64,000 nt of DNA from a bacterium (GTDB lineage Bacteria > Patescibacteriota > Minisyncoccia > Minisyncoccales > CG1-02-41-26), in the NCBI GenBank assembly GCA_030619905.1, contig JAUXAO010000002.1, forward strand, positions 65,193 to 129,192, given 5' to 3'. The first letter of the stretch is position 1. Each line of letters begins with the position of its first letter. Below, one piece after another: positions 2,806-38,466 of the stretch. Under the pieces are notes generated by a model. That model was not told the origin of the DNA and searched no databases. It saw only the letters and a program-made list of their open reading frames with translations. The translations under genes and the position numbers were made by a program.

Positions 2806-3684
2806 ATGAAGGAGGTTTATCTTTATAAAAAACTATCCAATCATAAAGTTCAATGCCAAAATTGTGCTCATTACTGTATTATTGAACATGAAAAAAGAGG
2901 CAAATGTGGCGTGAAAGAAAACAAGAAAGGTAAACTATATTCTTTGGTTTACGGAAAGATTGTTGCTTTAAACATTGATCCCATTGAGAAAAAACCTTTT
3001 TATCATTTTTTACCAGGAACTAATTCTTTATCGCTTGCCACTGTAGGATGTAATTTTAAATGTCTTAATTGTCAGAATTATGGTATTTCCCAAATGCCTC
3101 AGGAAACAGGTCAAATTTTAGGGAAAGATTTAACTCCTGAAAAAATAGTAGAAGTTGCTCTTGAGAATAATTTGCCAAGCATTTCTTATACCTATACAGA
3201 ACCAGCCATTTTTTCTGAATATGCTTTGGATATAATGAAATTAGCCAGGAAAAAGGGATTAAAAAACATTTGGGTTAGCAATGGATTTTGGTCAAAAGAA
3301 CTTTTTGATTTAATTTTTCCTTATTTGGACGCGGTTAATATTGATTTAAAAAGCTCTGAGAATGGTTTCTATGTAAAATATTGCGGAGGAAAATTAAAAC
3401 CAGTTCTAGACACTTTGAAAAGATTAAAAGATAAAAAGATTTGGATTGAGGTTACTACTTTAATTATTCCGGGTTTAAATGATAAAGAAAAAATATTTAA
3501 GGGTATTGCTAATTTTATTAAGAATAAACTAGGTAAAGAAACTCCCTGGCATATCAGTAGATTTTCTGGAGCAATCTCTTGGAAATTTCAAGATTTTCCT
3601 GATACGCCTATTGGAACTTTAAAAAAAGCACAAGAAGTTGGTAAAAAAGCCGGTTTAAAATATATTTATATCGGCAATATCTAA
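2806..3684 (+). CDS. amrS: AmmeMemoRadiSam system radical SAM enzyme
   Basis: Radical-SAM motif CNFKCLNCQNY plus an N-terminal Cys cluster (CQNCAHYC..CGV). It is followed directly by Memo-like and AMMECR1 genes. Confidence 0.8.
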   Translation: MKEVYLYKKLSNHKVQCQNCAHYCIIEHEKRGKCGVKENKKGKLYSLVYGKIVALNIDPIEKKPFYHFLPGTNSLSLATVGCNFKCLNCQNYGISQMPQETGQILGKDLTPEKIVEVALENNLPSISYTYTEPAIFSEYALDIMKLARKKGLKNIWVSNGFWSKELFDLIFPYLDAVNIDLKSSENGFYVKYCGGKLKPVLDTLKRLKDKKIWIEVTTLIIPGLNDKEKIFKGIANFIKNKLGKETPWHISRFSGAISWKFQDFPDTPIGTLKKAQEVGKKAGLKYIYIGNI

Positions 3685-3687
3685 TTT

Positions 3688-4302
3688 ATGATTAAATTTG
3701 CCTCAATTTCTCCTCATCCTCCAATACTTCTTCCTTCTGTAGGTTCAGAACAAGACCGTTTGAAGTTAAAAAAAACAATCGAAAGTTTAGAGTATTTGGC
3801 TAAAAGTTTTAAAAAAGCAAACCCTGATTGTTTGATAATTTCTTCTCCACATCCTGATTGGGGTTTTAAGGTTCCTTTATATTTTATAGCCAATGATTTT
3901 AAAGGTGAAATTGAGTATTTTTTAACTGAGCTTGACCCACCGAAATTTTATTTTGATAAAGGCAAACAATTTTATCTAAATTTAGAAAAAAACAAATCTT
4001 ATGGCTTAATAGCTTCAGGGGATCTCTCTCACTGTTTGAAAGAAGACGGTCCTTATGGATTTTATCCTGATGGGCCAAAATTCGATAAATATTTAATCAA
4101 ATATTTAAAAGAAAAAGATATAGAGAATTTCTTAAAATTGGATAAAATGTTTCCTGAAGCTGGCGAGTGCGGTCTTCGTTCCTTTTCTTTTCTCTTAGGA
4201 ATATTAGAAGAATCAAAACTTGATTGGCAGCCGGAAATTCTTTCTTATCAAGGGCCATTTGGAGTTGGATATCTCGTTGCTTCAATTCAAATCAAAAACT
4301 AA
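3688..4302 (+). CDS. amrB: Memo/LigB-fold protein, AmmeMemoRadiSam system protein B-like (short, 204 aa)
   Basis: N-terminus ISPHPPILLPSVG is typical of class III extradiol dioxygenase/Memo-like proteins. The position between amrS and AMMECR1 supports the call. It is shorter than typical Memo proteins. Confidence 0.5.
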   Translation: MIKFASISPHPPILLPSVGSEQDRLKLKKTIESLEYLAKSFKKANPDCLIISSPHPDWGFKVPLYFIANDFKGEIEYFLTELDPPKFYFDKGKQFYLNLEKNKSYGLIASGDLSHCLKEDGPYGFYPDGPKFDKYLIKYLKEKDIENFLKLDKMFPEAGECGLRSFSFLLGILEESKLDWQPEILSYQGPFGVGYLVASIQIKN

Positions 4303-4835
4303 TGAAAAATTATACAAACCCGTATATTTCACTTGCAAAATCAGCAGTAGAAACTTATATTAATAAAAGGAAGGTTATTAAGGTACCAGATGGCTTACCA
4401 GAGAAAATTACAAGCAAAAAAGCAGGCACTTTTGTAACTATCAAGAAAAATGGAGATTTAAGAGGATGTATAGGCACTTATTTACCAACAAAAAAGAGTA
4501 TTGCTGAGGAGATAATTCAAAATGCTATTACTGCGGCCACTGAAGATTATCGTTTCGGACCGGTTCAAAAACAAGAACTCCCCTATCTCACTTATAGTGT
4601 TTATATCTTAGAAAAACCAGAATTAGTGAAAGATACAAAAGAATTAAACCCTAAGAAATACGGCATTATTATTAAAACTCTTAACCATCCTTTAAAATCC
4701 GCGCTTTTACTTCCTGACTTAGATGGGATAAACACGGTGGAACAGCAGATTTCAGTAACTTGCCAAAAAGGAGGAATTGACCCTTCAAAAGAAAAAACAG
4801 TTATTTATAAGTTTAAAGTAAAAGAACATAGTTGA
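4303..4835 (+). CDS. amrA: AMMECR1 domain protein (AmmeMemoRadiSam system protein A)
   Basis: Carries the LRGCIGT hallmark motif. ATG 4303 immediately follows the upstream stop. The track start 4224 overlaps the upstream gene in another frame. Confidence 0.8.
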
Positions 4836-15813: not shown

Positions 15814-16920
15814 TTATTCTTTTTTACTGCAAATCTCTACAATAGATAGTTCCAAAGGTAATTGAACAATTGAAGAATATTTCATTTTATTTTCCGCCTC
15901 CATAAATTTCTCCAGAATTTCATGAATTTCTTCTGAAGAAAGTTTTTTAGCAAATCCTTTTATTTTTTCTTTCTCCTCGCTAGTCAAACTGGAGATTAAA
16001 GAATCCTCAAACTGAGAATCTATTTTCAAAAGCAGAATTTCTCTCAGATAATTATTCAATGCCTTGATAAATTGCTGAAGATTAATTCCTTTGTCAATGG
16101 ATTTGTTCAAAAAAGAAACAGTTTTTTTTACATCTTTTTCTGATAAATATTCCATAAACTGGATAATAAGTTCAGTTTCAATGTTTCCCAGCAGTTCTCC
16201 AACAACTTCTTTTTTAATTGACTTGCCTTTTCCTGAAAAACTTATTATCTTATCCAATAGACTCTCAGCGTCTCTAATTGAACCGGTTGCCTCTCTGGCA
16301 ATAAGGAATAAAGCTGGTTCTTCATATTCTATTTTCTCTTTTTTCAAAATCTTTTCTAATCGTTGAATAATCTCGGGAATCTTTAATTTTCGAAAATCAA
16401 ATGTCTGGCATCTGGAAATAATAGTTGGTATCATTTTATGTATTTCAGTTGTAGCTAAGACGAAAATCGCATGAGCAGGAGGTTCTTCCAGAGTTTTTAA
16501 AAGAGCGTTATTAGCCTCTTTAGTAAGCATATGACATTCGTCAATGATAAATACTTTGTATTTTGATTTAGTGGGTACAAAACGAATTCCCTCTTTTAAA
16601 TTTCTCATTTCATCAATACCTCTGTTAGAAGCAGCATCTATTTCTATAAGATCAATGGAATTTCCTTTGTTGATTTCCTGGCATGATTCGCATTTATTAC
16701 AAGGTTCATATTCCCCTTCTTTCCTGTTCTGACAGTTTAGTGCTTTAGCTAAAAGCCGGCCTAAAGTAGTTTTTCCAGTTCCCCTTGGGCCAGCAAATAA
16801 ATAAGCATGAGAAATCATTCCGGAAGAAATGGCATTGGTCAGGATTTTTACTATGTATTCCTGACCTACAATTTCAGCAAATGTCTTTGGTCTGTATTTT
16901 CTGTATAATACTAGGTTCAT
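15814..16920 (-). CDS. dnaX: DNA polymerase III subunit gamma/tau (short form)
   Basis: Walker A GPRGTGKTT, zinc module C..C..CxxC, DEVHM-like IDECHML and SRC motif ISRCQ. Confidence 0.85.
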   Translation of the reverse strand: MNLVLYRKYRPKTFAEIVGQEYIVKILTNAISSGMISHAYLFAGPRGTGKTTLGRLLAKALNCQNRKEGEYEPCNKCESCQEINKGNSIDLIEIDAASNRGIDEMRNLKEGIRFVPTKSKYKVFIIDECHMLTKEANNALLKTLEEPPAHAIFVLATTEIHKMIPTIISRCQTFDFRKLKIPEIIQRLEKILKKEKIEYEEPALFLIAREATGSIRDAESLLDKIISFSGKGKSIKKEVVGELLGNIETELIIQFMEYLSEKDVKKTVSFLNKSIDKGINLQQFIKALNNYLREILLLKIDSQFEDSLISSLTSEEKEKIKGFAKKLSSEEIHEILEKFMEAENKMKYSSIVQLPLELSIVEICSKKE

Positions 16921-16926
16921 ATAAAG

Positions 16927-17544
16927 TTATTTCTTGAAAACAATGAATTTATATCCTAAAAAGTTCCAGATAAAAGCACAAAGAACACCGATAAAGGCTC
17001 CTATATTTGCCCAGAGCGTCTCTGAGACACCGAATTGAGTACCAATTACATTAACAACAAGCGAAGCAACACCTACATTTAGTAAAAGACTAATTCCAGT
17101 TATTAAATAGAATTGAGAAAATTCTTTTGTTCCAACTTTTGTTTCTTTTTTCTTGAAAGTCCAGAATTTGTTCCAGAAATAGGAGTTTACTGCTGCACAG
17201 GAAAAAGAGATTATCTTGAAAAAAGAAAAGTACCAGCCAGAAGTTATCAAAAAAGCATTCATTAAAAAGTTTAATACAGCAAAATCAATAAAAGTGTTTA
17301 GAGAACCAGTCAGAGTGAATTTAAAGAGCTGAAAAATGGCAGAAAGTTTTTGTTTGAAAAAAGATCCAACAAAAATATAAACAAGAGCCAGAAATGGTAA
17401 AATCAGGGGCAGAAAACGCAGAAACGGATCAAGAATAGAAGGCAACTCAACTTCAATGGTCTTTAAGATAAAGAGTAGAAGCAAGGCATCAGCTTCAGCA
17501 ATAATAAGCGAAGCTATGATATCTGATTTTTTAAAGTTTTTCAT
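16927..17544 (-). CDS. GtrA family membrane protein
   Basis: TM-rich, with FKFTLTGSLNTFIDFAVLNFL and a C-terminal WNFLGYKFIVF, as in GtrA-like proteins. Confidence 0.7.
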   Translation of the reverse strand: MKNFKKSDIIASLIIAEADALLLLFILKTIEVELPSILDPFLRFLPLILPFLALVYIFVGSFFKQKLSAIFQLFKFTLTGSLNTFIDFAVLNFLMNAFLITSGWYFSFFKIISFSCAAVNSYFWNKFWTFKKKETKVGTKEFSQFYLITGISLLLNVGVASLVVNVIGTQFGVSETLWANIGAFIGVLCAFIWNFLGYKFIVFKK

Positions 17545-17633
17545 ATTTATATATTATTAATTATTCGACGTTCAATCATATTATCATAAAACAGAATTTT
17601 TGAAAAGAAGATAAATTATGCTAAAATAAATCT

Positions 17634-19025
17634 ATGCTTAAATTTTACAATACTCTTTCCCGAAAAAAGGAAGTTTTCAAACCTTTAAAGAATAAAAAAG
17701 TGGGACTCTATACATGCGGCCCAACTGTTTATTGGTTTGCCCATGTTGGCAATTTAAGAACATATATTTTTGAAGATATTTTAAAAAGAGTTTTAGAATA
17801 CAACAAATATAAAGTTAAGCATGTAATGAATATTACTGATGTGGGCCATTTAACTTCTGACGCTGATACTGGCGAGGATAAACTGGAAAAAGGAGCAAAA
17901 AGAGAAAACAAGACTGTCTGGCAGATTGCTGATTTCTACACCAAACATTTTAAAAAGGATTTGAAGAATTTAAATATAAAAGAACCAAGTGTCTGGATAA
18001 AAGCAACAGATACAATAAAAGAACAAATAGATTTAATTAAAATCCTGGAGAAAAAAGGATTTACTTACAAGATCAAGGACGGTGTTTATTTTGACAGTTC
18101 AAAACTCAAAAATTACGGACAGCTCTGGGGAAGTAAAAAAAGAGAAATAAAAGCCGGGGCAAGAGTTAAAATGGTAAAAGGAAAGAAACATCCCACTGAT
18201 TTTGCCTTGTGGAAATTCAGTCCCCAAGAAGTCAAAAGACAAATGGAATGGGATTCTCCTTTTGGAAAAGGATTTCCAGGCTGGCACACCGAATGTGTGG
18301 TAATGGGAGCAAAAGAGTTAGGAATCCCATTTGATATTCATTGCGGAGGCATAGATCATATTCAAATCCACCATACCAATGAAATTGCTCAATCTGAAGC
18401 AGGTTTTAATAAAACATTGGCTCGTTTCTGGCTTCATGGTGAGTTTTTAATCCTAAAAAAAGGAAGAATGGGCAAATCCAAAGGTAATATAGTTATTCTA
18501 GACGATTTAATTAAAAAAGGATTTAATCCCCTTTCCTATCGTTATTTGTGCCTCACAGCCCATTATCGTTCTCAATTAACCTTTTCCCTGGAAAACCTAA
18601 AAGCGGCTCAGAACGGCTTAAAAAAGCTCTCTCAAAGGGTAATAGACCTTAAACAGCAGTCTTCTAAGGTTAAATCTCGAGATATTGGACAAAAAGCAAG
18701 AACCTATAAGAAGAGATTCTTAAATCTTGTAAATGATGACTTAAACATGCCAAAAGCCCTGGCTTTATTCTGGAAAATGCTTGATAATAAAAATCTATTG
18801 GAAAAAGAAAAGTATTCTCTTGTTCTGGATTTTGACAAAGTTTTTGGTTTAAATCTGGATAAAAAGAAAGAAAAAATCCCAAAACAAATCCAGGAATTGG
18901 TTAAAAAAAGACAAGAATACCGAGAGAAAAAACAATGGCAGAGAGCTGATGAAATTAGAAAGAAAGTTGAAAAAATGGGTTATAAGATAAAAGACACCAA
19001 AAAAGGGGCAAAGGTAAGTAAATAA
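17634..19025 (+). CDS. cysS: cysteine--tRNA ligase
   Basis: Class I signature CGPTVY..HVGN, a KMSKS-like RMGKSKGN, and a typical CysRS length. Confidence 0.9.
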   Translation: MLKFYNTLSRKKEVFKPLKNKKVGLYTCGPTVYWFAHVGNLRTYIFEDILKRVLEYNKYKVKHVMNITDVGHLTSDADTGEDKLEKGAKRENKTVWQIADFYTKHFKKDLKNLNIKEPSVWIKATDTIKEQIDLIKILEKKGFTYKIKDGVYFDSSKLKNYGQLWGSKKREIKAGARVKMVKGKKHPTDFALWKFSPQEVKRQMEWDSPFGKGFPGWHTECVVMGAKELGIPFDIHCGGIDHIQIHHTNEIAQSEAGFNKTLARFWLHGEFLILKKGRMGKSKGNIVILDDLIKKGFNPLSYRYLCLTAHYRSQLTFSLENLKAAQNGLKKLSQRVIDLKQQSSKVKSRDIGQKARTYKKRFLNLVNDDLNMPKALALFWKMLDNKNLLEKEKYSLVLDFDKVFGLNLDKKKEKIPKQIQELVKKRQEYREKKQWQRADEIRKKVEKMGYKIKDTKKGAKVSK

Positions 19026-19068
19026 TTTGACATTGAGACGCAAAAGATTTAAAATAATATCGTAAATT

Positions 19069-20433
19069 ATGGCAGAACTAAATCCAAAAATATCAAAGGA
19101 GAAACTGCCGCCTCAGAATATAGAGGCAGAAAAATCTCTTTTAGGATGCTTGATGATCGATCCCGAATCTATTTTAAAGGTGGTCGATTTTTTAATGCCC
19201 AAGGATTTTTACAAAGATATTCATAAAAAAATCTATCAGACAATGGTTGAGATTTTTGAAAAAAGAGAACCCATTGACTCTTTAAGTGCTTCTTCGCGAT
19301 TAAAAGAGAAAAAGGAGCTGGAACAAATAGGCGGAGTGGCTTATCTGACCAGTTTGGTGAATTTCGTACCTACTGCTTCTCATGTTTTAAATTATGCCAA
19401 AATAGTCCAGCAAAAAAGAATCTTAAGAGACTTAATCGGAGCAAGTTATGAAATTGGAATGATGGGATATCAAGAAGCAGAAGACGTTGATGTCTTACTA
19501 GACGATGCTGAGAGGAGAATTTTCAGCATTGCCCAGAAATCCTTGACTCAGCGTTTTATCCCGGTCAAAGAAACATTGGAAGAAACCTTTAAAAGAATTG
19601 ATGAACTTTCAAAACATAAAGGAAGTTTACGGGGAATTCCTACTGGTTTCCGAAGCTTAGACAATATTTTAGCCGGTCTTCAAAAATCAGATTTAATTAT
19701 CTTGGCTGGAAGGCCTAGTTTAGGAAAATCTGCTATGGCTTTGGACATTGCTCGGCATGTCGCTTCTGATCATAAAATATCAGTTGGAATTTTTAGTTTA
19801 GAAATGTCTAAAGACCAGATTATTGATCGTTTAATTGCTGCTCAAGCTGATATTGATTTATGGCGGTTGAGAACAGGCCGGCTTTCTGATAAAGGAGAAG
19901 ATAATGATTTTGACAGGATACAAAAAGCAATGGCTACTTTATCCGAAGCCCCTATCTTTATTGATGACGCATCGAGTTCTAATGTTTTGCAAATGAGAGC
20001 TATGGCCAGAAGATTGCAAGCAGATCAGGGGTTAGGTCTTTTAATAATTGATTATCTACAATTAATGGAATCAAGGAATCCAAATGCCACTATGGTTCAG
20101 CAGGTTACTGAAAACTCAAGGGCCCTGAAAGGTTTGGCCAAAGAGCTTAATGTGCCTGTTTTAGTTCTCTCTCAATTATCAAGAGCAGTAGAAACAAGAA
20201 CTCCCCATATCCCAAGATTAGCTGATCTTCGTGAGTCAGGCGCGATAGAGCAGGATAGTGACGTAGTAATGTTTATTCATAGGGAGGACAGATATAAACC
20301 AAATACGGAAAGGAAAAATATTGCTGATATTATCATTGCCAAACACAGAAACGGGCCAGTTGGCAAAATAGAGCTTTATTTTGACGAACCAAGAGTAAGC
20401 TTTAGAGATATAGAAAAAGGATATCAGGATTAA
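19069..20433 (+). CDS. dnaB: replicative DNA helicase
   Basis: PQNIEAEKSLLGCLM N-terminus, Walker A GRPSLGKSA, and a RecA-like C-terminal domain. Confidence 0.9.
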   Translation: MAELNPKISKEKLPPQNIEAEKSLLGCLMIDPESILKVVDFLMPKDFYKDIHKKIYQTMVEIFEKREPIDSLSASSRLKEKKELEQIGGVAYLTSLVNFVPTASHVLNYAKIVQQKRILRDLIGASYEIGMMGYQEAEDVDVLLDDAERRIFSIAQKSLTQRFIPVKETLEETFKRIDELSKHKGSLRGIPTGFRSLDNILAGLQKSDLIILAGRPSLGKSAMALDIARHVASDHKISVGIFSLEMSKDQIIDRLIAAQADIDLWRLRTGRLSDKGEDNDFDRIQKAMATLSEAPIFIDDASSSNVLQMRAMARRLQADQGLGLLIIDYLQLMESRNPNATMVQQVTENSRALKGLAKELNVPVLVLSQLSRAVETRTPHIPRLADLRESGAIEQDSDVVMFIHREDRYKPNTERKNIADIIIAKHRNGPVGKIELYFDEPRVSFRDIEKGYQD

Positions 20434-20435
20434 TT

Positions 20436-21041
20436 ATGTATTCTAAAACTATTCAAAAACTTATTGATTTGTTTTCAAAGTTTCCAACTGTTGGACCCAG
20501 AACCGCTGCCCGGTTCGTTTTTTATTTGATAAAAACTCCAAAACAAGAGATTGAAAATTTAATAGAATCAGTCCAAGAATTAAAAGAGAAGATAAAACTT
20601 TGTTCGCTTTGTTTCCGTTCTTTTGAAGGCGAAAAAGAACTCTGTCCGATTTGTTCTGATTCTAAAAGAGATAAAGATATTATTTGCATTGTTGAAAAAG
20701 AAGTTGATTTAGAATCAATTGAAAAAACAAAGAAATACAATGGACTTTATTTTGTTTTAGGAGGAATTATTTCTGGTTTTAATAAAGATAAAAAGAAACA
20801 AGAGATTAAACAAAGAGTTGAGAAATTAATTGAGCGAATTAAACAAGAAAAGGAAATCAAGGAAATAATTTTGGCTTTAAATCCAACTGCCCAAGGAAAA
20901 ACTACATCTTTATTAATCCAGAGAAAACTGAAAGATTTAGGAATAAAAACCACCCATCTTGGCTGTGGTTTGCCAATGGGTGGAGAATTGGAATATGCTG
21001 ACGAAGAAACTCTTTCCTCGGCTTTAGAAGGCAGGAAATAA
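20436..21041 (+). CDS. recR: recombination protein RecR
   Basis: HhH N-terminus (FPTVGPRTAARF), a C4 zinc finger (CSLC...CPIC) and a Toprim domain. Confidence 0.9.
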   Translation: MYSKTIQKLIDLFSKFPTVGPRTAARFVFYLIKTPKQEIENLIESVQELKEKIKLCSLCFRSFEGEKELCPICSDSKRDKDIICIVEKEVDLESIEKTKKYNGLYFVLGGIISGFNKDKKKQEIKQRVEKLIERIKQEKEIKEIILALNPTAQGKTTSLLIQRKLKDLGIKTTHLGCGLPMGGELEYADEETLSSALEGRK

Positions 21042-30433: not shown

Positions 30434-32107
30434 TTATTCGTAGTCAGGGGGTATTTGCCACAAATCAATAATGTATTTTGCCAATTTCCCGAATAATGGA
30501 GCAGCTGAATATCCTGAGGTTGTCACTTCTTTTGGATTATTTAATTTTACAAAAATCAAAACTCTGGGATTCATGGCAGGAAAAAAACCCAAAAAACCAT
30601 GTATGGTTTCATCCTCTAGATATCCTCCTTGTTTTGAAGGAACCTGAGATGTTCCTGTTTTTCCAGCAATAAAATATCCATTAACACCTGCTCTTTTCGC
30701 ATATCCATTATCAATTACACTTACCATCATCGAGGTAAGCTTGGCAGCTGTGGTTTCAGAGATAACTTCCCCTTGAACTTCTGGCTGGATTTTAATCTTT
30801 TCTCCATTATCTTTAATTATTTTCTCAACAACGTAAGGTTTCATTAATTTACCTCCATTGGCTATTGCTCCGAAGGCTCTGACCAATTGAATAGGAGTGA
30901 TCTCGACTCCCTGGCCAAAAGAAGCAGTGGCAAAATCTCTGGGATAACCGTTTTTTAAAGTTTCATTTGAAGAAAACTCTTCTCCTTGCAAATCAATTTT
31001 AGTTTTTTCAAAAAAGCCAAATCTTTCCAGATACTTTAAAAAAAGTTTTCCTCCAAGTTCTTGCCCCACGAATACTGCTCCCGTATTAATTGATTTCTCC
31101 AAAACATTTGTCATTGTCTGCTCTCCCCAAACTCTTTTTTCATAATTATAAATAATAGGCCCTCCCACACTTACATATCCCTTATCTTCATAAGTTGTTT
31201 CTGGAGTTATTAAATCTTCTTCTAAGGCTGCAGCCATTGTTATGGCTTTAAAAACTGAACCTGGTTCAAAAAGTCTTTGAACTACTCCATTGCGAAAGAT
31301 TTCAAGATCTGTTTCTTTTTGGTATTCGTTTGGATTAAAACTGGGAAAAGTTGCTAAGCTAATTATCTTCCCGGTTGCTGGCTCCATTACTATTATCTCT
31401 CCTGAATCAATATCCCATTTTTCTTTGGCTTCTTTTAGTATTTTCTCAGAAAAAAATTGGATATTGTAATCCAATGTTAAAACAAGACTGGAACCATGCT
31501 CTGGCGGATTAAGATCGTCTTCTTCAGAAAATGAAGTTAAATATCCTAAAGGAGATCTTTGTCCTTTTTCAAAACCTTGTTTTCCTTTTAATATGTCATC
31601 AAAATAACCTTCAATTCCATATTGGCCATCCCCTTCTTCATTAACAAAACCTATTAGAGAGGCAGCCAAAAAGTTCTCAGCATAGAATCTTTTTTGTATT
31701 TCATCTCCATATACTCCTCTAATATTTTGTTTTCTTAATTCTTCAAATTGTTGATCGCTAACTTCTTTTTTAAAAGTTTTATTCTCCTGCAGGTCAGCCA
31801 GAATTTCTTCTTTGGGCTGATTAAAGATTGTTTCTAAAATCTCAGCTGTTTCCTCTTTGTTCTCTATTTTTTCTGGAAAGACATATATTATATTTTTCTT
31901 GATATTTTGAGCTAAAATCTTTTTTCCGTCTTCCAAAAAAAAATTGCCTCTTTCCCCTATTGATTCTTTTAGAGACAACTGTTGTCCTTTAGCTATTACC
32001 TGCCAATAATCTCCATTTTTGATTTGAAGAAAAAACAATCGGTTCCCAATTATTAACGAGAAAAAACAGAATAAAAAAAATATAAAATAGACTCCTATTC
32101 TTTTCAT
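30434..32107 (-). CDS. ftsI: penicillin-binding protein 2/3-type peptidoglycan D,D-transpeptidase
   Basis: N-terminal TM, PBP dimerisation domain, SxxK (SVFK), SxN (SIN) and KTG (KTGTS) motifs, in dcw context. Confidence 0.85.
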   Translation of the reverse strand: MKRIGVYFIFFLFCFFSLIIGNRLFFLQIKNGDYWQVIAKGQQLSLKESIGERGNFFLEDGKKILAQNIKKNIIYVFPEKIENKEETAEILETIFNQPKEEILADLQENKTFKKEVSDQQFEELRKQNIRGVYGDEIQKRFYAENFLAASLIGFVNEEGDGQYGIEGYFDDILKGKQGFEKGQRSPLGYLTSFSEEDDLNPPEHGSSLVLTLDYNIQFFSEKILKEAKEKWDIDSGEIIVMEPATGKIISLATFPSFNPNEYQKETDLEIFRNGVVQRLFEPGSVFKAITMAAALEEDLITPETTYEDKGYVSVGGPIIYNYEKRVWGEQTMTNVLEKSINTGAVFVGQELGGKLFLKYLERFGFFEKTKIDLQGEEFSSNETLKNGYPRDFATASFGQGVEITPIQLVRAFGAIANGGKLMKPYVVEKIIKDNGEKIKIQPEVQGEVISETTAAKLTSMMVSVIDNGYAKRAGVNGYFIAGKTGTSQVPSKQGGYLEDETIHGFLGFFPAMNPRVLIFVKLNNPKEVTTSGYSAAPLFGKLAKYIIDLWQIPPDYE

Positions 32108-32109
32108 TT

Positions 32110-32451
32110 TTACTCTGTTTTCTTTACTAGATAATCCTGAGAAACAATGATATATCTTACCTCTTCAACTTTTACTAGATTGAGGTTTTCGATTCTCTTT
32201 TCTATATTTTCCAGAGAATTAAGACCAACAGCTTCTATCTCAAGAAAAGAATTATTTCTAGAAACGTCTGTAATCGTCTGCCCATACTTTTCTACCTGAT
32301 ATTCTTTGCTTATAATCGCCTGAACTTGAAAAACATAGAAGCTTAAGGAAAAAACTAACAAAACAATTCCTAGTAAGGCAATCTTTTTAAAATTCAAAGT
32401 TAATGAAGGACAAGTAGGAATTAAAGGAAAATGTAAGATTAAAGAATTCAT
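32110..32451 (-). CDS. ftsL: small bitopic membrane protein in the FtsL position
   Basis: One TM followed by a short extracytoplasmic domain, located between rsmH and ftsI. The call rests on position only. Confidence 0.4.
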   Translation of the reverse strand: MNSLILHFPLIPTCPSLTLNFKKIALLGIVLLVFSLSFYVFQVQAIISKEYQVEKYGQTITDVSRNNSFLEIEAVGLNSLENIEKRIENLNLVKVEEVRYIIVSQDYLVKKTE

Positions 32452-33338
32452 ATTCTAATGCCTGCTCTTAACTTCGCTGACCTCGACCTTTTATTAGTTT
32501 TAATCTCTTCAAAACAAGGCTTAATTGGTTTTTTTGTTTGTATCTTGATAAGTCCTTGTTTTGCTTTTTCTTTTAAAAAGTTTTTAACAATTCTGTCTTC
32601 TAAAGAATGAAAAGAAATAATTACCAATCTTCCCTCTTTTTCTAATATATCTAATGCTTTAGTCAAGCCTTGTTTAATTGTTTCTAATTCATCATTGACA
32701 GTAATCCTTAAGGCCTGAAAAGTTTTGGTGGCAGAATGGATTCTTTTCTTTTGATACCAAGAAGGAGTTGATCTTTTAATAATCTCTACTAGTTGAAAAG
32801 TACTTTTAATTGGATTTTTCTTTCTTGCTTGAATAATTTCTTGGGCAATCTTTCTTGAAAATCTTTCTTCTCCATATTCTTTTAAAATCTGCTCAATTTC
32901 TTTTTCTGGCCATTCATTGATAATATTTTCAGCTGTTAGATGTTTTTGATTTTTGTCGTACCGCATATCCAAGAGTTCGTCTTTTTGAAAACTGAATCCT
33001 CTGCCACTTTCTTCCAGATGTTGGCTAGATATTCCTAAGTCAAACAAGATTCCATTGATCGGTTTAAAATTATGTTCCTCAACAATATTTTTAAGGTTGG
33101 CATAAGAATCATTTACTAAAATCAATCTGTTTTTAAGCTCAATGTTTGATGTTCGAAGTTTGGCGTTTTCTATCTGTGCTGGATCAATATCTATGCCTAG
33201 AACTTTTCCCTTGGGTTTATTTTCTCTAAGGATCAAAGCCGTATGACCTCCCTGTCCAAAAGTAGCATCAATAAAGTTTTCATTCGGTTTAGGATCAAGA
33301 TACTGAATAACTTCCTTTTGGAGAACTGGAATGTGCAT
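32448..33338 (-). CDS. rsmH: 16S rRNA (cytosine1402-N4)-methyltransferase
   Basis: MHIPVLQKEV..DATFGQGGH..DLGISS motifs. Confidence 0.9.
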   Translation of the reverse strand: MHIPVLQKEVIQYLDPKPNENFIDATFGQGGHTALILRENKPKGKVLGIDIDPAQIENAKLRTSNIELKNRLILVNDSYANLKNIVEEHNFKPINGILFDLGISSQHLEESGRGFSFQKDELLDMRYDKNQKHLTAENIINEWPEKEIEQILKEYGEERFSRKIAQEIIQARKKNPIKSTFQLVEIIKRSTPSWYQKKRIHSATKTFQALRITVNDELETIKQGLTKALDILEKEGRLVIISFHSLEDRIVKNFLKEKAKQGLIKIQTKKPIKPCFEEIKTNKRSRSAKLRAGIRI

Positions 33339-33343
33339 ATTTT

Positions 33344-33775
33344 TTATATTCCTAGCTCTTTTAATCTTTCAGCTATATCCCCTGCTTCTTTTTCTGTTTT
33401 CTCCTTATATGTTTCCCATTTCTTCTCATCCCAAATTTCAATTCGATTATATAATCCAGCTACTACTGCTTTCTTACTCAAACAAGCATATTTCTTTAAA
33501 TAATCAGGAACTAAAATTCTACCCAATCTATCTAAATTCACTTCCATTGCTCCAGCCAGCATAATTCTGACAAATCCCCTGGCATCTGCCTGAGCTAAAG
33601 GCAATTGAGAAAGCTTTTTAGCCAGCTTTTCCCATTCCTTGGCAGGATATAAGAATAAACAATTATCAAGGCCGCGAGTAATCACTGCTTTTTTAGCTAG
33701 AGCCTGGCGAAACTTTGTTGGAATAGCTAATCGTTTCTTATTATCGATTGTGTATTTGTATTCTCCTAAGAACAT
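33344..33775 (-). CDS. mraZ: division/cell wall cluster transcriptional regulator MraZ
   Basis: MFLGEY..T.D.K.R..IP..FR plus a second SpoVT/AbrB-like repeat (LD.LGRILVP). Confidence 0.9.
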   Translation of the reverse strand: MFLGEYKYTIDNKKRLAIPTKFRQALAKKAVITRGLDNCLFLYPAKEWEKLAKKLSQLPLAQADARGFVRIMLAGAMEVNLDRLGRILVPDYLKKYACLSKKAVVAGLYNRIEIWDEKKWETYKEKTEKEAGDIAERLKELGI

Positions 33776-33789
33776 AATATTATCAGAAG

Positions 33790-33859
33790 TTATTCACAGG
33801 TTTATTGAGTTATCCCCACATTTATCCACAACTTTCCATCTGCCTCCATTTTCGCTCCA
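33790..33859 (-). promoter_or_regulatory. phased TGGNN / TGTGGATAA-type direct repeats over the mraZ promoter and 5' UTR
   Basis: On the minus strand, TGGAG (33859), TGGAG (33848), TGGAA (33838), TGGAT (33828) and TGGGG (33818) start 11, 10, 10 and 10 nt apart. The last two lie inside TGTGGATAA (33830-33822, a 9/9 DnaA box) and TGGGGATAA (33818-33810, 8/9). TGTGAATAA lies at 33798-33790 (8/9). Confidence 0.55.
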
Positions 33860-33876
33860 TTTCTTACCAAAGTCAA
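33848..33876 (-). promoter_or_regulatory. candidate mraZ (dcw) promoter
   Basis: Minus strand reads TTGACT (33876-33871), a 17-nt spacer, then GAAAAT (33853-33848). Confidence 0.4.
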
Positions 33877-33960
33877 CCCCTTTTAAACCACTTTTAAAAA
33901 CATTGATTTTCGTTGAAAACACTGGGAAAATAAGAAAAAACCTTTTATAAAAGGATATTA

Positions 33961-33980
33961 TTTTCCACAGGTTATCCACA
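33961..33980 (-). promoter_or_regulatory. distal pair of TGTGGATAA-type boxes
   Basis: Minus strand reads TGTGGATAA (33980-33972, 9/9) cc TGTGGAAAA (33969-33961, 8/9). They have the same orientation and an 11-nt period. Confidence 0.5.
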
Positions 33981-34053
33981 GTAGCTAATTAAAACTAAAA
34001 CTGCCTTTAAAAAGACAGTTTTAATCTCAAAAATCTTTTAGAGAATTTTACGC

Positions 34054-35616
34054 TTAAACTATTCCTTGAGTTTTAAGTTGAGTAATTTTTCTCTTTAATA
34101 ATTTGTTTGCTCTATATGCTTCTATTTGTTTTTTCCTCTTTTCTGACCATTCGTCAAATCCAATTAGTTCTGATCTAAAAACCCAAAGAATTGTCAGGGT
34201 TATAATTAATGGAAACAAGATAGAGTTTAAAATTCCATTACTTATACCTGTTGGAACATCAGTAACTCCAGCCACTGCTGTTCTTCTAACTATGACCTTA
34301 CAAGTATCGCTGTCAGAAGTTTCCGTATTATATGCCAGAGCAGTATTAATTAAATTAGTTGTTCCATAACTGAATTCACCTTTAGACTCTACTTTTGCTT
34401 CAAAAGTAATTGTTTTTGTCTGACCAGATGATAAATCTCCTATATTAATTGCCTGAGTGCTAATGTTTTTAGAAGAATAAACATTATTTATTCTCAGATT
34501 ACCCTCATAAGTAATATTATCTGGCAAAGTATCTTTTACCATTACGTCTCGAGCTTTTGTACCTCCTGTTGACTCAATCTCTATTTGAAAGAGTAATCTA
34601 TCAGATGGGTCAGCACTTCTATAAGAGTGATACCATTTAGTATCTCCCCTAGAAAGATTCTTAACTGATTTACTAACATTTAAAGAGACGTTAGAATCAT
34701 TTCTTTCTTTAACCAAAACTCTCATACTATCAGAGTCAGTGCGGCCTTCATTATCAGTAACCGTCAGATGACAAGTGTAATGTCTGTCATAACTCACTGA
34801 TGGAGCATTAAAAGTAGGTCGAGCAGTATATCTATTTGAAAGATTACCTCCACTACAAGACCAATAATAAGTTACTGAATATCCATCAGGATCATAACCT
34901 GAACCATTTAAGGTGACAGATTGATTTTCATAAACATTCTTGTCAGAGCCAGCATCTGCAACCGGAGGATCACCTGAATAAGTACTAACATTAATCATTA
35001 CATTATCGCTTACTGAACCACCAGGACCTGAACAAGTAATATTGTAGGTTTTTGAAGAAGTAAGACTCCCTGTTGATTCGGAACCAGAAGTAGATTTTGT
35101 TCCTGACCAGGCGTTGGAAGCATAACAAGAATCAACATTAGATGAAATCCAGATTAAATTGGCTGAAGTATTGTAAGGAATAGTAATCGGTCCGTCAGAA
35201 CCATTGACCTTAATATCAACACTGAGACCAAAAGTAGTAGTAAAAGTCTTATTCTCGCCATAAGAAGTATCGGCACTGTTTCTGGCTACTGCTCTGTAAT
35301 GATAGGTGGTAGAAGGAGATAATCCAGTGACAGTAATACAATAAAAACCTGTTTGTGTTAAAGTCTTTTCAATTGTTTTTTGTCCATACCCCATTGTTTG
35401 TCCATACTCAAACCAAACAGAAGTTGTCAAATCTCCACCCATATCAGTTAATTCTCCAACAAAGATTACTGTAGTTCCGCTCACAGTAGTATTGGCTGGA
35501 CAACTTTCGGCTAAAGCAAAATTAGCAGAAAACAAACTGGTTCCTATTCCAATAAAAATTCCTAAAAATAACAAAACTTTTAAGAATAAAGTTCTTTTAA
35601 TTTTTTTTCTAAACAT
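34054..35616 (-). CDS. large surface protein (FN3-like N-domain, Ig-like domain, PKD-like domain, DUF11-like repeat, C-terminal TM)
   Basis: Signal peptide. The VWFEYGQTMGYG..Y.YRAVARNSADTSYGENKTFTT domain is shared with the 35637 gene. It also has a PKD-like DPDG..YYWS segment and a DUF11-like VMVKDTLPDNITY segment. The C-terminal end reads VPTG + hydrophobic helix + RS, followed by a 40-aa basic tail. Confidence 0.6.
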   Translation of the reverse strand: MFRKKIKRTLFLKVLLFLGIFIGIGTSLFSANFALAESCPANTTVSGTTVIFVGELTDMGGDLTTSVWFEYGQTMGYGQKTIEKTLTQTGFYCITVTGLSPSTTYHYRAVARNSADTSYGENKTFTTTFGLSVDIKVNGSDGPITIPYNTSANLIWISSNVDSCYASNAWSGTKSTSGSESTGSLTSSKTYNITCSGPGGSVSDNVMINVSTYSGDPPVADAGSDKNVYENQSVTLNGSGYDPDGYSVTYYWSCSGGNLSNRYTARPTFNAPSVSYDRHYTCHLTVTDNEGRTDSDSMRVLVKERNDSNVSLNVSKSVKNLSRGDTKWYHSYRSADPSDRLLFQIEIESTGGTKARDVMVKDTLPDNITYEGNLRINNVYSSKNISTQAINIGDLSSGQTKTITFEAKVESKGEFSYGTTNLINTALAYNTETSDSDTCKVIVRRTAVAGVTDVPTGISNGILNSILFPLIITLTILWVFRSELIGFDEWSEKRKKQIEAYRANKLLKRKITQLKTQGIV

Positions 35617-35625
35617 AGTTTTTTT

Positions 35626-35930
35626 AAGATAATAAATTAATAAGTGACTATTGCCGGTTTAGTGACTACTACCGGTGGATTTGGCGTTACAATTACCGTG
35701 ACCGAATCGGTTCCTGTCTTGATTTCAGTCGCATCTTTACAGGTAAGAGTGAAAGTATATGTCTTTACAGTATTCATTTGAATTGTTTGGGAACCAGAAA
35801 TTGCTTTTGAACCTGACCAATCGCCAGAAGCCTGGCAAGAAACTGAATTTTCTGACGTCCAGGACAAAATGACATTATCCTTGTAAGAAACAGTAATTGG
35901 TCCATTTGAATTATTGGCTTTGATATCTAC
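35626..35930. repeat. 305-bp direct repeat, copy 1 (3' end of the surface-protein gene plus 11 nt of 3' flank)
   Basis: Aligns without gaps to 36378-36682 (offset 752). By hand count there are about 15 mismatches in 305 nt. Confidence 0.85.
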
Positions 35931-36314
35931 GATTATTGGCAGACATTTGGTAGTAAAGGTCTTATTCTCGCCATAAGAAGTGTCGGCACTGTTTTTGGCT
36001 ACTGCTCGGTAATTATAGGCAGTACAAGGATCTAAATTATAGACAGTGGCACAAAAAATACCTATTCCATATTTCGAAGAATGAGGACTTTCAAAACCAT
36101 AGCTCATAGTTTTCCCGTACTGAAACCAAACTTCTAAATTAGGATCTCCCCCGTCATCAATTACTTCACCAACTAAAGTAGCCTGTGTTTCTTCCACTAC
36201 GGTATTCGAAGGACAACTTCCTTGAGCTAATGCAAAATGAACCAATACCAAGCTCGCTGCTAAAAAGATGGTGAAAAATAATATGTTTTTTAATACTGCT
36301 TTTTTTATTACCAT
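35637..36314 (-). CDS. surface protein paralog (FN3-like N-domain plus Ig-like C-domain)
   Basis: Signal peptide. The N-domain is paralogous to 34054..35616 and the C-terminal ~100 aa are nearly identical to 36389..37123. It ends ..TKPAIVTY. Confidence 0.6.
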   Translation of the reverse strand: MVIKKAVLKNILFFTIFLAASLVLVHFALAQGSCPSNTVVEETQATLVGEVIDDGGDPNLEVWFQYGKTMSYGFESPHSSKYGIGIFCATVYNLDPCTAYNYRAVAKNSADTSYGENKTFTTKCLPIIVDIKANNSNGPITVSYKDNVILSWTSENSVSCQASGDWSGSKAISGSQTIQMNTVKTYTFTLTCKDATEIKTGTDSVTVIVTPNPPVVVTKPAIVTY

Positions 36315-36377
36315 AATTTTGTTTGTTTTATTTTTTTTCTCGACTTTATATTTGACTATTTTCTAATTTTTTCTTTA

Positions 36378-36682
36378 AAGATAATAAATTAATAAGTGAC
36401 TATTGCCGGTTTAGTGATTACTACCGGTGGATTTGGCGTTACAATTACCGTGACCGAATCGGTTCCTGTCTTGATTTCAGTCGCATCTTTACAGGTAAGA
36501 GTAAATGTATTTGTTTTTACTTCATTCATCTGAATTGTTTGGGAACCAGAAATTGCTTTTGTTCCTGACCAATCGCCAGAAGCCTGGCAAGAAACTGAAT
36601 TTTCTGACGTCCAGGACAAAATAATATTATCCTTGTAAGAAACAGTAATTGGTCCATTTGAATCATTGGCCTTGATATCTAC
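36378..36682. repeat. 305-bp direct repeat, copy 2
   Basis: See 35626-35930. Confidence 0.85.
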
Positions 36683-37123
36683 TGAAGGAGCTAAGTAGCC
36701 ACAATCCTCTGGGCAATTGAAACTGGTTTCTCCACAACTTGAATTACAAGTTCCATCTCCGCAGTAATAACACTGGCTGTCACAAGATTGCCAAGAAGAC
36801 CATTCATAGCAACAGTCAGAATCATAATTACTACAAGTTCTACCAGAAGTGCCTGAACACTCGTGTTGACCAACATAGGCGCATTCATCAGCACAAGTTG
36901 GAGGATTTGTATACCACTGAGACCATTCATAGCAGCAGTCAGAATCATAATCACCACAAACCCTATAAGAATCCCCTGATGTTTGTGTTTGACCTACATA
37001 AGCACATTCATCGGCACAAGTGCCAGTTACATCAATTAGTGCCAAAACAGAAAACGGCTGGACCAAAAGAAAACCAGCCAAAATAACAGGAAACAGTTTT
37101 TTATTTAATTTATTTAATTTCAC
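36389..37123 (-). CDS. surface protein paralog (two Cys-rich CADECAYVGQ...CCYEWS modules plus Ig-like C-domain)
   Basis: Signal peptide. The internal ~40-aa Cys-rich module occurs twice, and the C-terminal domain is shared with the 35637 gene. The track start is a GTG and there is no nearby ATG. Confidence 0.55.
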   Translation of the reverse strand: MKLNKLNKKLFPVILAGFLLVQPFSVLALIDVTGTCADECAYVGQTQTSGDSYRVCGDYDSDCCYEWSQWYTNPPTCADECAYVGQHECSGTSGRTCSNYDSDCCYEWSSWQSCDSQCYYCGDGTCNSSCGETSFNCPEDCGYLAPSVDIKANDSNGPITVSYKDNIILSWTSENSVSCQASGDWSGTKAISGSQTIQMNEVKTNTFTLTCKDATEIKTGTDSVTVIVTPNPPVVITKPAIVTY

Positions 37124-37839: not shown

Positions 37840-38466
37840 TTATTCTATTTTTAATTTTAATGTTGACTCCACGGCAATTCTTCTGATATTTTTACCAGGG
37901 GGCCAACAACTAACTAATATTAACATATTATCAGAATTTGTCAAGATATTTTCAGGAATTTCCTCTCCTTTTTCTAAAAAAATCTTTCTTTCTACAGAAT
38001 AATTATATTTTTGATGATTAAAATAAATAAATATCTCATCTCCTTTCTCTAATTCATTAAGAAGGGTAAAAACATTGTCATATTTTATATCTGGCCAATT
38101 AGGAGGAGCACTGTGTCCTAGGATTATAGTTTGGCCTTTTTCTCCAGGTAAAACTGAATCTGGATAATGAACTACCCCAGTATCTAAAGTTTTATGCACT
38201 TTATCTACATCTTCAACAAAAACTAGAGGAGCTAAAACTTCAATCTTAGGAATTTCTAAACTATTTTCTTTTTCAGAATACTCAAATTCTATTGTTTCAG
38301 GTGCATCAGATTCAATAGGAGTATCTTTTTGAAAAAAATTAGATATAGATTCAGAAATCACCCTATAATTAAAAATCCAGGAAATATCATTCCAGTTTAT
38401 AATCAAAAAACTTATCAGAAATATAAAAATAAAAGCCCTATAAAGCCGCTTAATATCTTGTTTCAT
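37840..38466 (-). CDS. sortase family transpeptidase
   Basis: N-terminal TM, catalytic His (IILGHS), the Cys motif LILVSCWP (TLxTC-like) and a downstream Arg (NIRRIAV). Confidence 0.75.
   Translation of the reverse strand: MKQDIKRLYRAFIFIFLISFLIINWNDISWIFNYRVISESISNFFQKDTPIESDAPETIEFEYSEKENSLEIPKIEVLAPLVFVEDVDKVHKTLDTGVVHYPDSVLPGEKGQTIILGHSAPPNWPDIKYDNVFTLLNELEKGDEIFIYFNHQKYNYSVERKIFLEKGEEIPENILTNSDNMLILVSCWPPGKNIRRIAVESTLKLKIE

Follow-up and report, generated by a model that had tools for sequence, protein, structure and literature searches.

The spacer upstream of mraZ in a Patescibacteriota genome (contig JAUXAO010000002.1) carries short direct repeats that can be read both as MraZ boxes and as DnaA boxes, which raises the question of whether they serve MraZ, DnaA or both. 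We analyzed a stretch of 64,000 nucleotides of this contig, referred to here as the window, together with the corresponding upstream DNA of related genomes and the dnaA regions of the phylum. The region is very probably a MraZ operator-promoter of an extended kind, with 8-9 phased units and a phased distal pair, whose strongest units coincide with consensus DnaA boxes. This assignment is based on sequence comparison.

Two perfect copies of the DnaA-box 9-mer TTATCCACA were found on the plus strand, one proximal to mraZ and one in the distal pair (Table 1), and these were the sole perfect copies in the 64 kb. They were accompanied by three plus-strand variants matching at eight of nine positions, namely TTATTCACA at the leader box, TTATCCCCA at the second box and TTTTCCACA at 33961-33969. 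All five boxes shared one orientation and read as TGTGGATAA-like sequences on the mraZ strand. A preliminary description of the locus had listed the same five sites, and its positions proved exact to the base. On the minus strand, TGG cores started at 33869, 33859, 33848, 33838, 33828 and 33818, forming a six-unit chain with a spacing of 10-11 bp. Further units lay in phase with this chain: a GTGG at 33890 and, after one skipped unit, a TGTGA at 33798-33794 (in-phase TG at 33796). The series of five TGG starts from 33859 to 33818 reported earlier was correct in its positions but undercounted, as the array begins upstream of the -35 hexamer and comprises 8-9 units plus the distal pair.

These repeats were compared with 200 windows simulated under a Markov-1 model. 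Five same-strand boxes with at most one mismatch occurred within 191 bp of the window, compared with a maximum of three, and usually one or two, in the simulated sequences. Similarly, the six-unit TGG chain was the longest in the window on both strands, compared with a simulated maximum of four. The simulations and the conservation in relatives excluded a chance origin of the repeats. The array was superimposed on a sigma-70-like promoter of mraZ, in which TTGACT and GAAAAT were separated by a 17-nt spacer, and the ATG of mraZ was located at 33775. An AT-rich segment of 84 bp (33960-33877) separated the distal pair from TTGACT.

MraZ relatives were abundant in Patescibacteria, with thousands of proteins at 65-97% identity (labels Nealsonbacteria, Gribaldobacteria, Staskawiczbacteria and Paceibacterota). 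We read the upstream DNA of 80 Patescibacteria genome loci, and the alignment used for the architecture contained 81 sequences. Conservation upstream of mraZ, which the preliminary description had set beforehand as the check on its proposal, was strong. Boxes with at most one mismatch to TGTGGATAA occurred at 12.2 per kb on the mraZ strand within 250 nt upstream of mraZ, compared with 0.25 per kb in the other 370 kb, and the corresponding densities of perfect boxes were 3.97 and 0.03 per kb. Nearly all of the perfect boxes counted as elsewhere still lay upstream of mraZ, in loci with long leaders. The boxes were almost uniform in orientation (244 on the mraZ strand vs 7 on the opposite strand), and at least two of them were present in 69 of the 80 loci. 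The nearest upstream gene belonged to 44 unrelated families among 74 loci, and rsmH was the next gene after mraZ in 77 of 80. Since the boxes stay with mraZ while its upstream neighbours vary, the element belongs to mraZ.

Whatever the upstream gene, a GTGG(A)(T/A)AAnnGTGG core (GTGGATAAnnGTGGGGATAAC) was present in 77 of the 81 sequences. When these 77 were aligned on the core, TTGAC appeared ~47 nt upstream and an A/T-rich -10 element ~24 nt upstream. The anchor matrix showed TGG at -50, -40, -30, -19, -9, +1, +11 and +33, a unit every 10.4 bp across eight turns of the helix. The spacings of [AG]TGG pairs upstream of mraZ peaked at 10 (132 pairs), 20-21, 30-32 and 41, whereas coding DNA was flat. 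The three best-kept units were TGTGGA(T/A)AA, TG(G/T)GGA(T/A)AA(C)(T) and, after the skipped unit, (C)TGTGGA(T/A)AA(C)(T), the last of which often abutted the ATG. At the proximal box position, TGTGGATAA was found in 31 and TGTGGAAAA in 13 of the 77 loci. At the second position, TGGGGATAA or TGGGGAAAA was commonest (35 of 77), and the homologue of the leader box was CTGTGGATAAC in most relatives, again often adjoining the ATG. One sub-lineage (L027, L037, L040 and L047) exhibited a plain array of four GTGG-N6 repeats that lacked the ATAA tail, with the same MraZ reading residues; what stays invariant is thus GTGG repeated every 10 bp.

About 38 of the 77 relatives also had the distal pair, of the form yTGTGGAwwAnCTGTGGAAAA, in which the period was always 11 bp. 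With a stricter pattern (26 pairs), the distances from pair to array were 86, 97-99, 105-108, 117, 128, 138, 148-150 and 161 bp. These distances were quantised with a period of 10.6 bp (Rayleigh R of 0.77 for 16 distinct distances, uncorrected for relatedness or for the scanning of several periods), which suggests that the pair contacts the promoter complex on the same face of the DNA, by looping.

In 16 of the 77 related loci, an extra 80-280 nt lay between operator and ATG (L001, L005, L015, L017, L030, L033, L043, L047, L049, L050, L052, L054, L056, L061, L073 and L077). None of the ten long leaders searched against Rfam matched a family, and conservation was poor among the four that were aligned (L043, L052, L054 and L056).

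Known MraZ operators consist of GTG(G/T) boxes 6 nt apart, at or after the mraZ promoter (PMC12957436; bioRxiv 10.1101/2022.02.09.479790). The repeat of Bacillus subtilis is GTGG[A/T]G, present in three copies and termed MBRs (bioRxiv 10.1101/2022.02.09.479790). In Mycoplasma genitalium, transcription starts inside box 1; in the cryo-electron microscopy structure, the box-reading residues of MraZ are D11, K13, R15, D82 and R86, with K13, R15 and R86 reading the bases (PMC12957436). The window matched these systems in position, with its array extending over the -35, the -10 and the mraZ leader, and in having at least three direct GTG(G/T)/TGG repeats about 10 bp apart in the gene orientation. 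Likewise, the operators of Escherichia coli Pmra (3 x GTGGG), B. subtilis and M. genitalium (4 x AAAGTG[T/G]) are ~10-bp direct repeats in the gene orientation at the mraZ promoter. The leader of E. coli Pmra, in the 5' untranslated region (UTR), reads GTGGGaaattGTGGGgcaaaGTGGGaataa and resembles the window array in its period, its location and the A-rich spacer that follows the core. Furthermore, alignment to M. genitalium MraZ (9qlr) showed that the window MraZ keeps D11, K13, R15, D82 and R86, and both DXXXR motifs (D11-N-K13-K-R15 and D82-R-L-G-R86) were present and kept in relatives, as the E. coli, B. subtilis and M. genitalium systems also have a cognate MraZ with these motifs and K13/R15/R86. 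The MraZ-operator reading suggested in the preliminary description was well supported by the location of the array over the promoter, by its 10.4-bp phasing and by the retention of the reading residues in MraZ. However, the window array has 8-9 phased units as opposed to 3-4 in the three reference operators and covers both the -35 and the -10. It also differs from them in that its conserved units are longer, a 9-11-mer of the form (C)TGKGGAWAA(C)(T) that equals the DnaA box, and in the added phased distal pair with 11-bp spacing, 90-165 bp upstream.

These features are consistent with the following mechanism. MraZ, which forms rings of 8-12 subunits in solved homologues, would bind one face of the DNA as an oligomer and contact the phased (A/G)TGG boxes from just upstream of the -35, through the -10 and start site, as far as the 5' UTR. 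Bound MraZ would block RNA polymerase, and the operon of this Paceibacteria-type bacterium would be autorepressed. The distal pair, ~150 bp upstream with its helical register kept, probably serves as an auxiliary operator by looping. The best-kept units, spelled (C)TG(T/G)GGA(T/A)AA(C)(T), are identical in sequence to high-affinity DnaA boxes, and DnaA could very probably bind the same bases.

Several observations weigh against MraZ as the only reader of these sequences, and MraZ binding and repression at the predicted operator are themselves deduced from comparison with known systems. The conserved unit of 9-11 bp is far above the 3-4 bases known to be read by MraZ, and GTGG and ATAA are offset by anything between 4 and 6 nt. 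Some lineages (L016, L022, L041 and the L027 group) had full-consensus boxes, single or inverted, that belonged to no array. Leader variants TGTGAATAA, TGTGCATAA and TGTTAATAA break GTG(G/T) yet match variants beside dnaA. In addition, a T before GTGG was associated with AWAA after it (odds ratio of 8.8, p = 5e-22, uncorrected for phylogeny), as though selection acted on the entire 9-mer. Such observations suggest that a second protein also reads the sequence, and not that MraZ is absent.

The candidate for a second reader is DnaA, and we looked for the DnaA boxes of the phylum itself. A scan of metagenomes with an AT-biased Walker-A pattern yielded 96 dnaA loci, almost all of them non-Patescibacteria, and a test scan of viral contigs for the DnaA motif found no DnaA. 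From one of the loci (L204), a representative-level search followed by a profile search retrieved diverse Patescibacteria DnaA proteins, including those of Moranbacteria. The resulting origin sample comprised nine Patescibacteria dnaA regions from classes and orders other than that of the window genome. Their gene order was rpmH-rnpA-(yidD)-yidC divergent from dnaA-dnaN-(recF/dciA). In the intergenic DNA flanking dnaA, boxes with at most one mismatch occurred at 5.0 per kb compared with 0.42 per kb elsewhere (12-fold), and perfect boxes at 1.8 compared with 0.03 per kb (62-fold). One region (L231) had four perfect boxes, and the Moranbacteria region (L234, CP175956.1) had three. The boxes in these regions occurred in both orientations with irregular spacing. 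Variants and 3' flanks common to the dnaA regions and mraZ included cTGTGGATAACt, TGTTAATAACT, TGTGAATAAGT, TGTTGATAACT, TGTAGATAA, TGTGCATAAGT and ACTGTGGGATAACT. The equivalents of E. coli R399, P423, D433, H434, T435 and H439, which are the DnaA base contacts in the domain IV-DNA crystal structure, were kept in all nine proteins. The DnaA-box identity asserted earlier was genuine, with the same boxes flanking dnaA in the phylum. In the window, the distal box CTGTGGATAAC was an 11-mer identical to E. coli R1 and R4.

Three side observations concern these dnaA regions. Five of those sampled within L226-L237 (L226, L227, L229, L232 and L233) had few or no consensus DnaA boxes in their origin regions, and the mraZ leader may hold the densest group of DnaA boxes in genomes of this kind. 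Six distinct Patescibacteria dnaA regions carried a small dciA gene after dnaN, or dnaN-recF. The DnaA of L204 and NCBI HYE22543.1, labelled 'Verrucomicrobiae bacterium', was 85-90% identical to Candidatus Doudnabacteria DnaA; the L204 dnaA adjoins a short monoderm-type yidC on a Doudnabacteria-type contig, and the label probably reflects a mistake in binning or taxonomy.

With two perfect and three eight-of-nine boxes in 191 bp, beyond chance, the window spacer has the makeup of a DnaA-box cluster. By proxy of the nine regions from other lineages and their invariant contact residues, the DnaA of this lineage would be expected to recognise the consensus. Considering the same boxes beside dnaA, the kept DnaA residues and the identity to R1/R4, DnaA should bind at least the perfect boxes, and on balance we expect it to bind some of the mraZ boxes. 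Whether such binding is a selected regulatory input is a separate matter, and we hold this to be possible but rather doubtful. In such a dual arrangement, the full-consensus units would have been selected as DnaA boxes too, with DnaA repressing the operon or competing with MraZ. DnaA would probably act as an ATP-DnaA oligomer, bound to the leader boxes and to the distal pair with its 11-bp spacing, and would tie ftsL/ftsI expression to the state of the initiator. We regard this dual control as a tentative alternative. Several findings given above are in keeping with it, including the enrichment of the 9-mer beside dnaA in nine regions, the variant spectrum and 3' flank common to mraZ and dnaA regions, the contact residues kept in all nine DnaA proteins, the R1/R4 11-mer, the full-consensus boxes outside arrays, the association of T with AWAA and the variable GTGG-ATAA offset. 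The distal pair also has a 9+2 bp spacing, and the leader-box variants that break GTG(G/T) fit TGTGNAWAA.

Other details count against selection for DnaA. The commonest second box, TGGGGATAA (TTATCCCCA on the plus strand), and the distal TGTGGAAAA were absent from the 25 phylum oriC boxes, whereas the mraZ boxes had 18% G and 25% A at the respective positions. GG was retained in 96-97% of the mraZ boxes, and the frequent TGGGGATAA breaks a core position of the DnaA consensus while keeping TGG. By comparison, the phylum oriC boxes varied at GG, which was more strictly kept at mraZ, and never read TGGGG (0 of 25). The substitution pattern of the mraZ boxes, as judged from these sequences, protects the MraZ core TGG, unlike that of the oriC boxes. 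Moreover, the A-rich spacer after GTGG is also found in the E. coli MraZ operator. GTGG plus A(T/A)AA from the MraZ grammar already matches the DnaA box at eight of nine positions, and much of the likeness could therefore arise without DnaA. DnaA requires neither a strict single orientation nor 10-bp phasing, and the oriC sample came from Patescibacteria lineages other than that of the window genome.

The same data bear on the converse idea that these are DnaA sites only, forming a DnaA-regulated promoter or a datA-like titration locus to which MraZ does not bind. The box density (12 per kb in relatives and five in 191 bp in the window) did exceed that of most of the sampled oriC regions of the phylum. 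However, TGG units lacking the tail keep to the 10.4-bp register through the -35 and -10, plain GTGG-N6 arrays occur in one sub-lineage, this is where MraZ operators canonically lie, and the substitution spectrum protects TGG, unlike that of oriC boxes. We consider this explanation very improbable.

The preliminary description had also allowed for the cluster being the chromosomal origin, and the dense clustering of consensus DnaA boxes within an AT-rich intergenic stretch would suit oriC or a remnant of it. However, the real origins of the phylum sit between rpmH-rnpA-yidC and dnaA-dnaN. Between 6 and 64 kb of the window, GC skew was negative and cumulative skew was monotonic, and no switch occurred at 33.9 kb. 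An origin at the mraZ spacer was also contradicted by the variable upstream neighbours (44 families), which differ between genomes while the boxes stay with mraZ. Pfam searches of all 49 open reading frames (ORFs) of at least 150 aa and tblastn with E. coli DnaA detected no dnaA, dnaN, gyrB, rpmH or origin-linked genes in the window; the same scans found dnaB, dnaX and recR. We rejected the origin, which we rate as extremely improbable. Elsewhere in the window, dnaX (minus strand), cysS, dnaB and recR (plus strand) at 15814-21041 clustered round a local strand switch (17545-17633) with a local GC-skew reversal, and the 89-bp spacer at this switch had no DnaA-box cluster.

With an MraZ operator-promoter as the preferred reading, the comparison with loci at which DnaA and MraZ meet is informative. 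According to PMC2533591 and PMC8203912, which cite Goranov et al. 2005, and bioRxiv 10.1101/2022.02.09.479790, DnaA binds and represses the yllB(mraZ)-ylxA-ftsL-pbpB promoter of B. subtilis. The binding was shown by chromatin immunoprecipitation (ChIP) and provides a link between replication and division via the unstable FtsL. A connection between DnaA and division genes is thus less novel than the preliminary description implied. The window has the identical four-gene mra operon (mraZ-rsmH-ftsL-pbpB/ftsI) and similarly has DnaA boxes at its promoter. However, DnaA binding was shown by ChIP in B. subtilis but is predicted in the window, where the candidate DnaA and MraZ sites are the same bases. 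At the E. coli mioC promoter, an MraZ site overlaps a DnaA box, as cited from Eraso et al. 2014 in PMC4446571. As there, one stretch in the window is readable by both proteins, because GTGG is embedded in TGTGGATAA. The mioC case is a single overlap beside oriC, whereas in the window the overlap recurs several times, directly at mraZ, and has been conserved throughout a large lineage.

A further case was the mraZ leader of Gemmiger formicilis, a Firmicute with 61% GC, identified by exact protein look-up (L174:6390-6580, metagenome contig OGJJ01002274.1). It contained GTGG repeats, GTGGgtaattGTGGtgag...GTGGttaagcGTGGgtag, followed by TTTTCCACG-TTATCCACA-gag-TTATCCACA (TTATCCACAgagTTATCCACA), two perfect DnaA boxes in the opposite orientation. 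The DnaA and MraZ boxes are therefore adjacent, separate and opposite in orientation there, as opposed to the same bases in the window. The B. subtilis yllB(mraZ)-ftsL promoter and E. coli mioC, together with this leader, are precedents for dual control. Compared with DnaA-box arrays proper, the window resembles the E. coli oriC arrays with 2-bp gaps and datA in its close co-oriented 9-mers, the distal pair being exactly 9+2 bp. Unlike E. coli oriC and datA, however, it has no skew switch and no dnaA, is tied to a promoter in helical register, and has proximal units 10 bp apart with forms absent from the phylum oriC boxes.

MraZ is among the most conserved bacterial regulators, and its operators have been characterised in only a few model species. 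No paper that connects Patescibacteria with MraZ operators, or with DnaA boxes at mraZ, turned up in our literature searches. The phased operator described here is unusually long and occurs in a large uncultivated phylum, and its units equal letter for letter the high-affinity DnaA box at that phylum's own origins. If DnaA binds, replication initiation would be wired to septum synthesis (FtsL/FtsI) in a compact manner that is widely conserved. More broadly, the units might be bifunctional across Paceibacteria-type Patescibacteria, with DnaA and MraZ competing or cooperating and ftsL/ftsI gated by the initiator; conversely, MraZ may sit on the DnaA boxes of oriC. We think this broader scheme unlikely, but if true it would provide a built-in replication-division checkpoint in genomes without most other regulators. 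Even without DnaA binding, the MraZ box of Patescibacteria is defined by this case. Origin finders that count DnaA boxes may be misled, as the mraZ leader is often denser in boxes than the true oriC.

Table 1. Features of the mraZ control region and operon (positions in the window)
Feature	Position	Strand	Remarks
Helically phased (A/G)TGG array	33794-33891	-	Covers -35, -10, presumed transcription start and 5' UTR
Distal pair CTGTGGATAAC-CTGTGGAAAA, 11-bp period (9+2 bp)	33961-33981	-	Box 33972-33980 is a perfect DnaA 9-mer
Proximal box TGTGGATAA	33822-33830	-	Perfect DnaA 9-mer with MraZ core GTGG within
Second box TGGGGATAA inside GTGGGGATAAC	33810-33818	-	GTGG 10 bp past the preceding GTGG
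Leader box TGTGAATAA	33790-33798	-	15 nt before ATG; fits TGTGNAWAA, not GTG(G/T)
-35 hexamer TTGACT	33871-33876	-	Relatives: TTGAC at fixed distance from the box array
-10 hexamer GAAAAT	33848-33853	-	Relatives: TAAAAA, TATAAA or TAAAGT
mraZ, first gene of the mraZ-rsmH-ftsL-ftsI operon, presumed repressor	33344-33775	-	Pfam MraZ, E = 2.8e-41
rsmH	32448-33338	-	Pfam match
ftsL/DivIC-like gene	32110-32451	-	Pfam match
Class B penicillin-binding protein (PBP; ftsI-like)	30434-32107	-	Pfam match
Operon remainder beyond mraZ	30434-33338	-	rsmH, ftsL/DivIC-like gene and class B PBP
Terminator-like hairpin of the surface-protein gene, upstream edge of the mraZ control region	33990-34029	-	Fold -17.9 kcal/mol, z = -7.3

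The spacer 5' of mraZ was 278 bp long and was bordered on its other side by a surface-protein gene with PKD/DUF11 domains (34054-35616, minus strand). Between the distal pair and the -35 hexamer, positions 33942-33955 (minus strand) form a perfect palindrome of 14 bp, CCTTTTATAAAAGG, with a T-run after it; a protein might bind there, or the DNA might be bent. We considered and rejected a structured RNA in this spacer, as Rfam gave sub-threshold matches only, at the upstream terminator, and CCTTTTATAAAAGG folded weakly (-2.5 kcal/mol, z = -0.6).

Beyond this spacer, three consecutive genes on the minus strand (34054-37123) encode secreted proteins of 520, 225 and 244 aa with near-identical modules, such as '...NSADTSYGENKTFTT...' and 'DIKAN[DN]SNGPITVSYKDN[IV]ILSWTSENSVSCQASGDWSG[ST]KAISGSQTIQMN'. 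The trio looks like a paralogous family of cell-surface proteins, and a sortase gene was located at 37840-38466. At 2806-4835 on the plus strand, radical-SAM, LigB/Memo-like and AMMECR1 genes lay in a row, the last two ORFs overlapping by 79 nt, which matches the AmmeMemoRadiSam gene trio.

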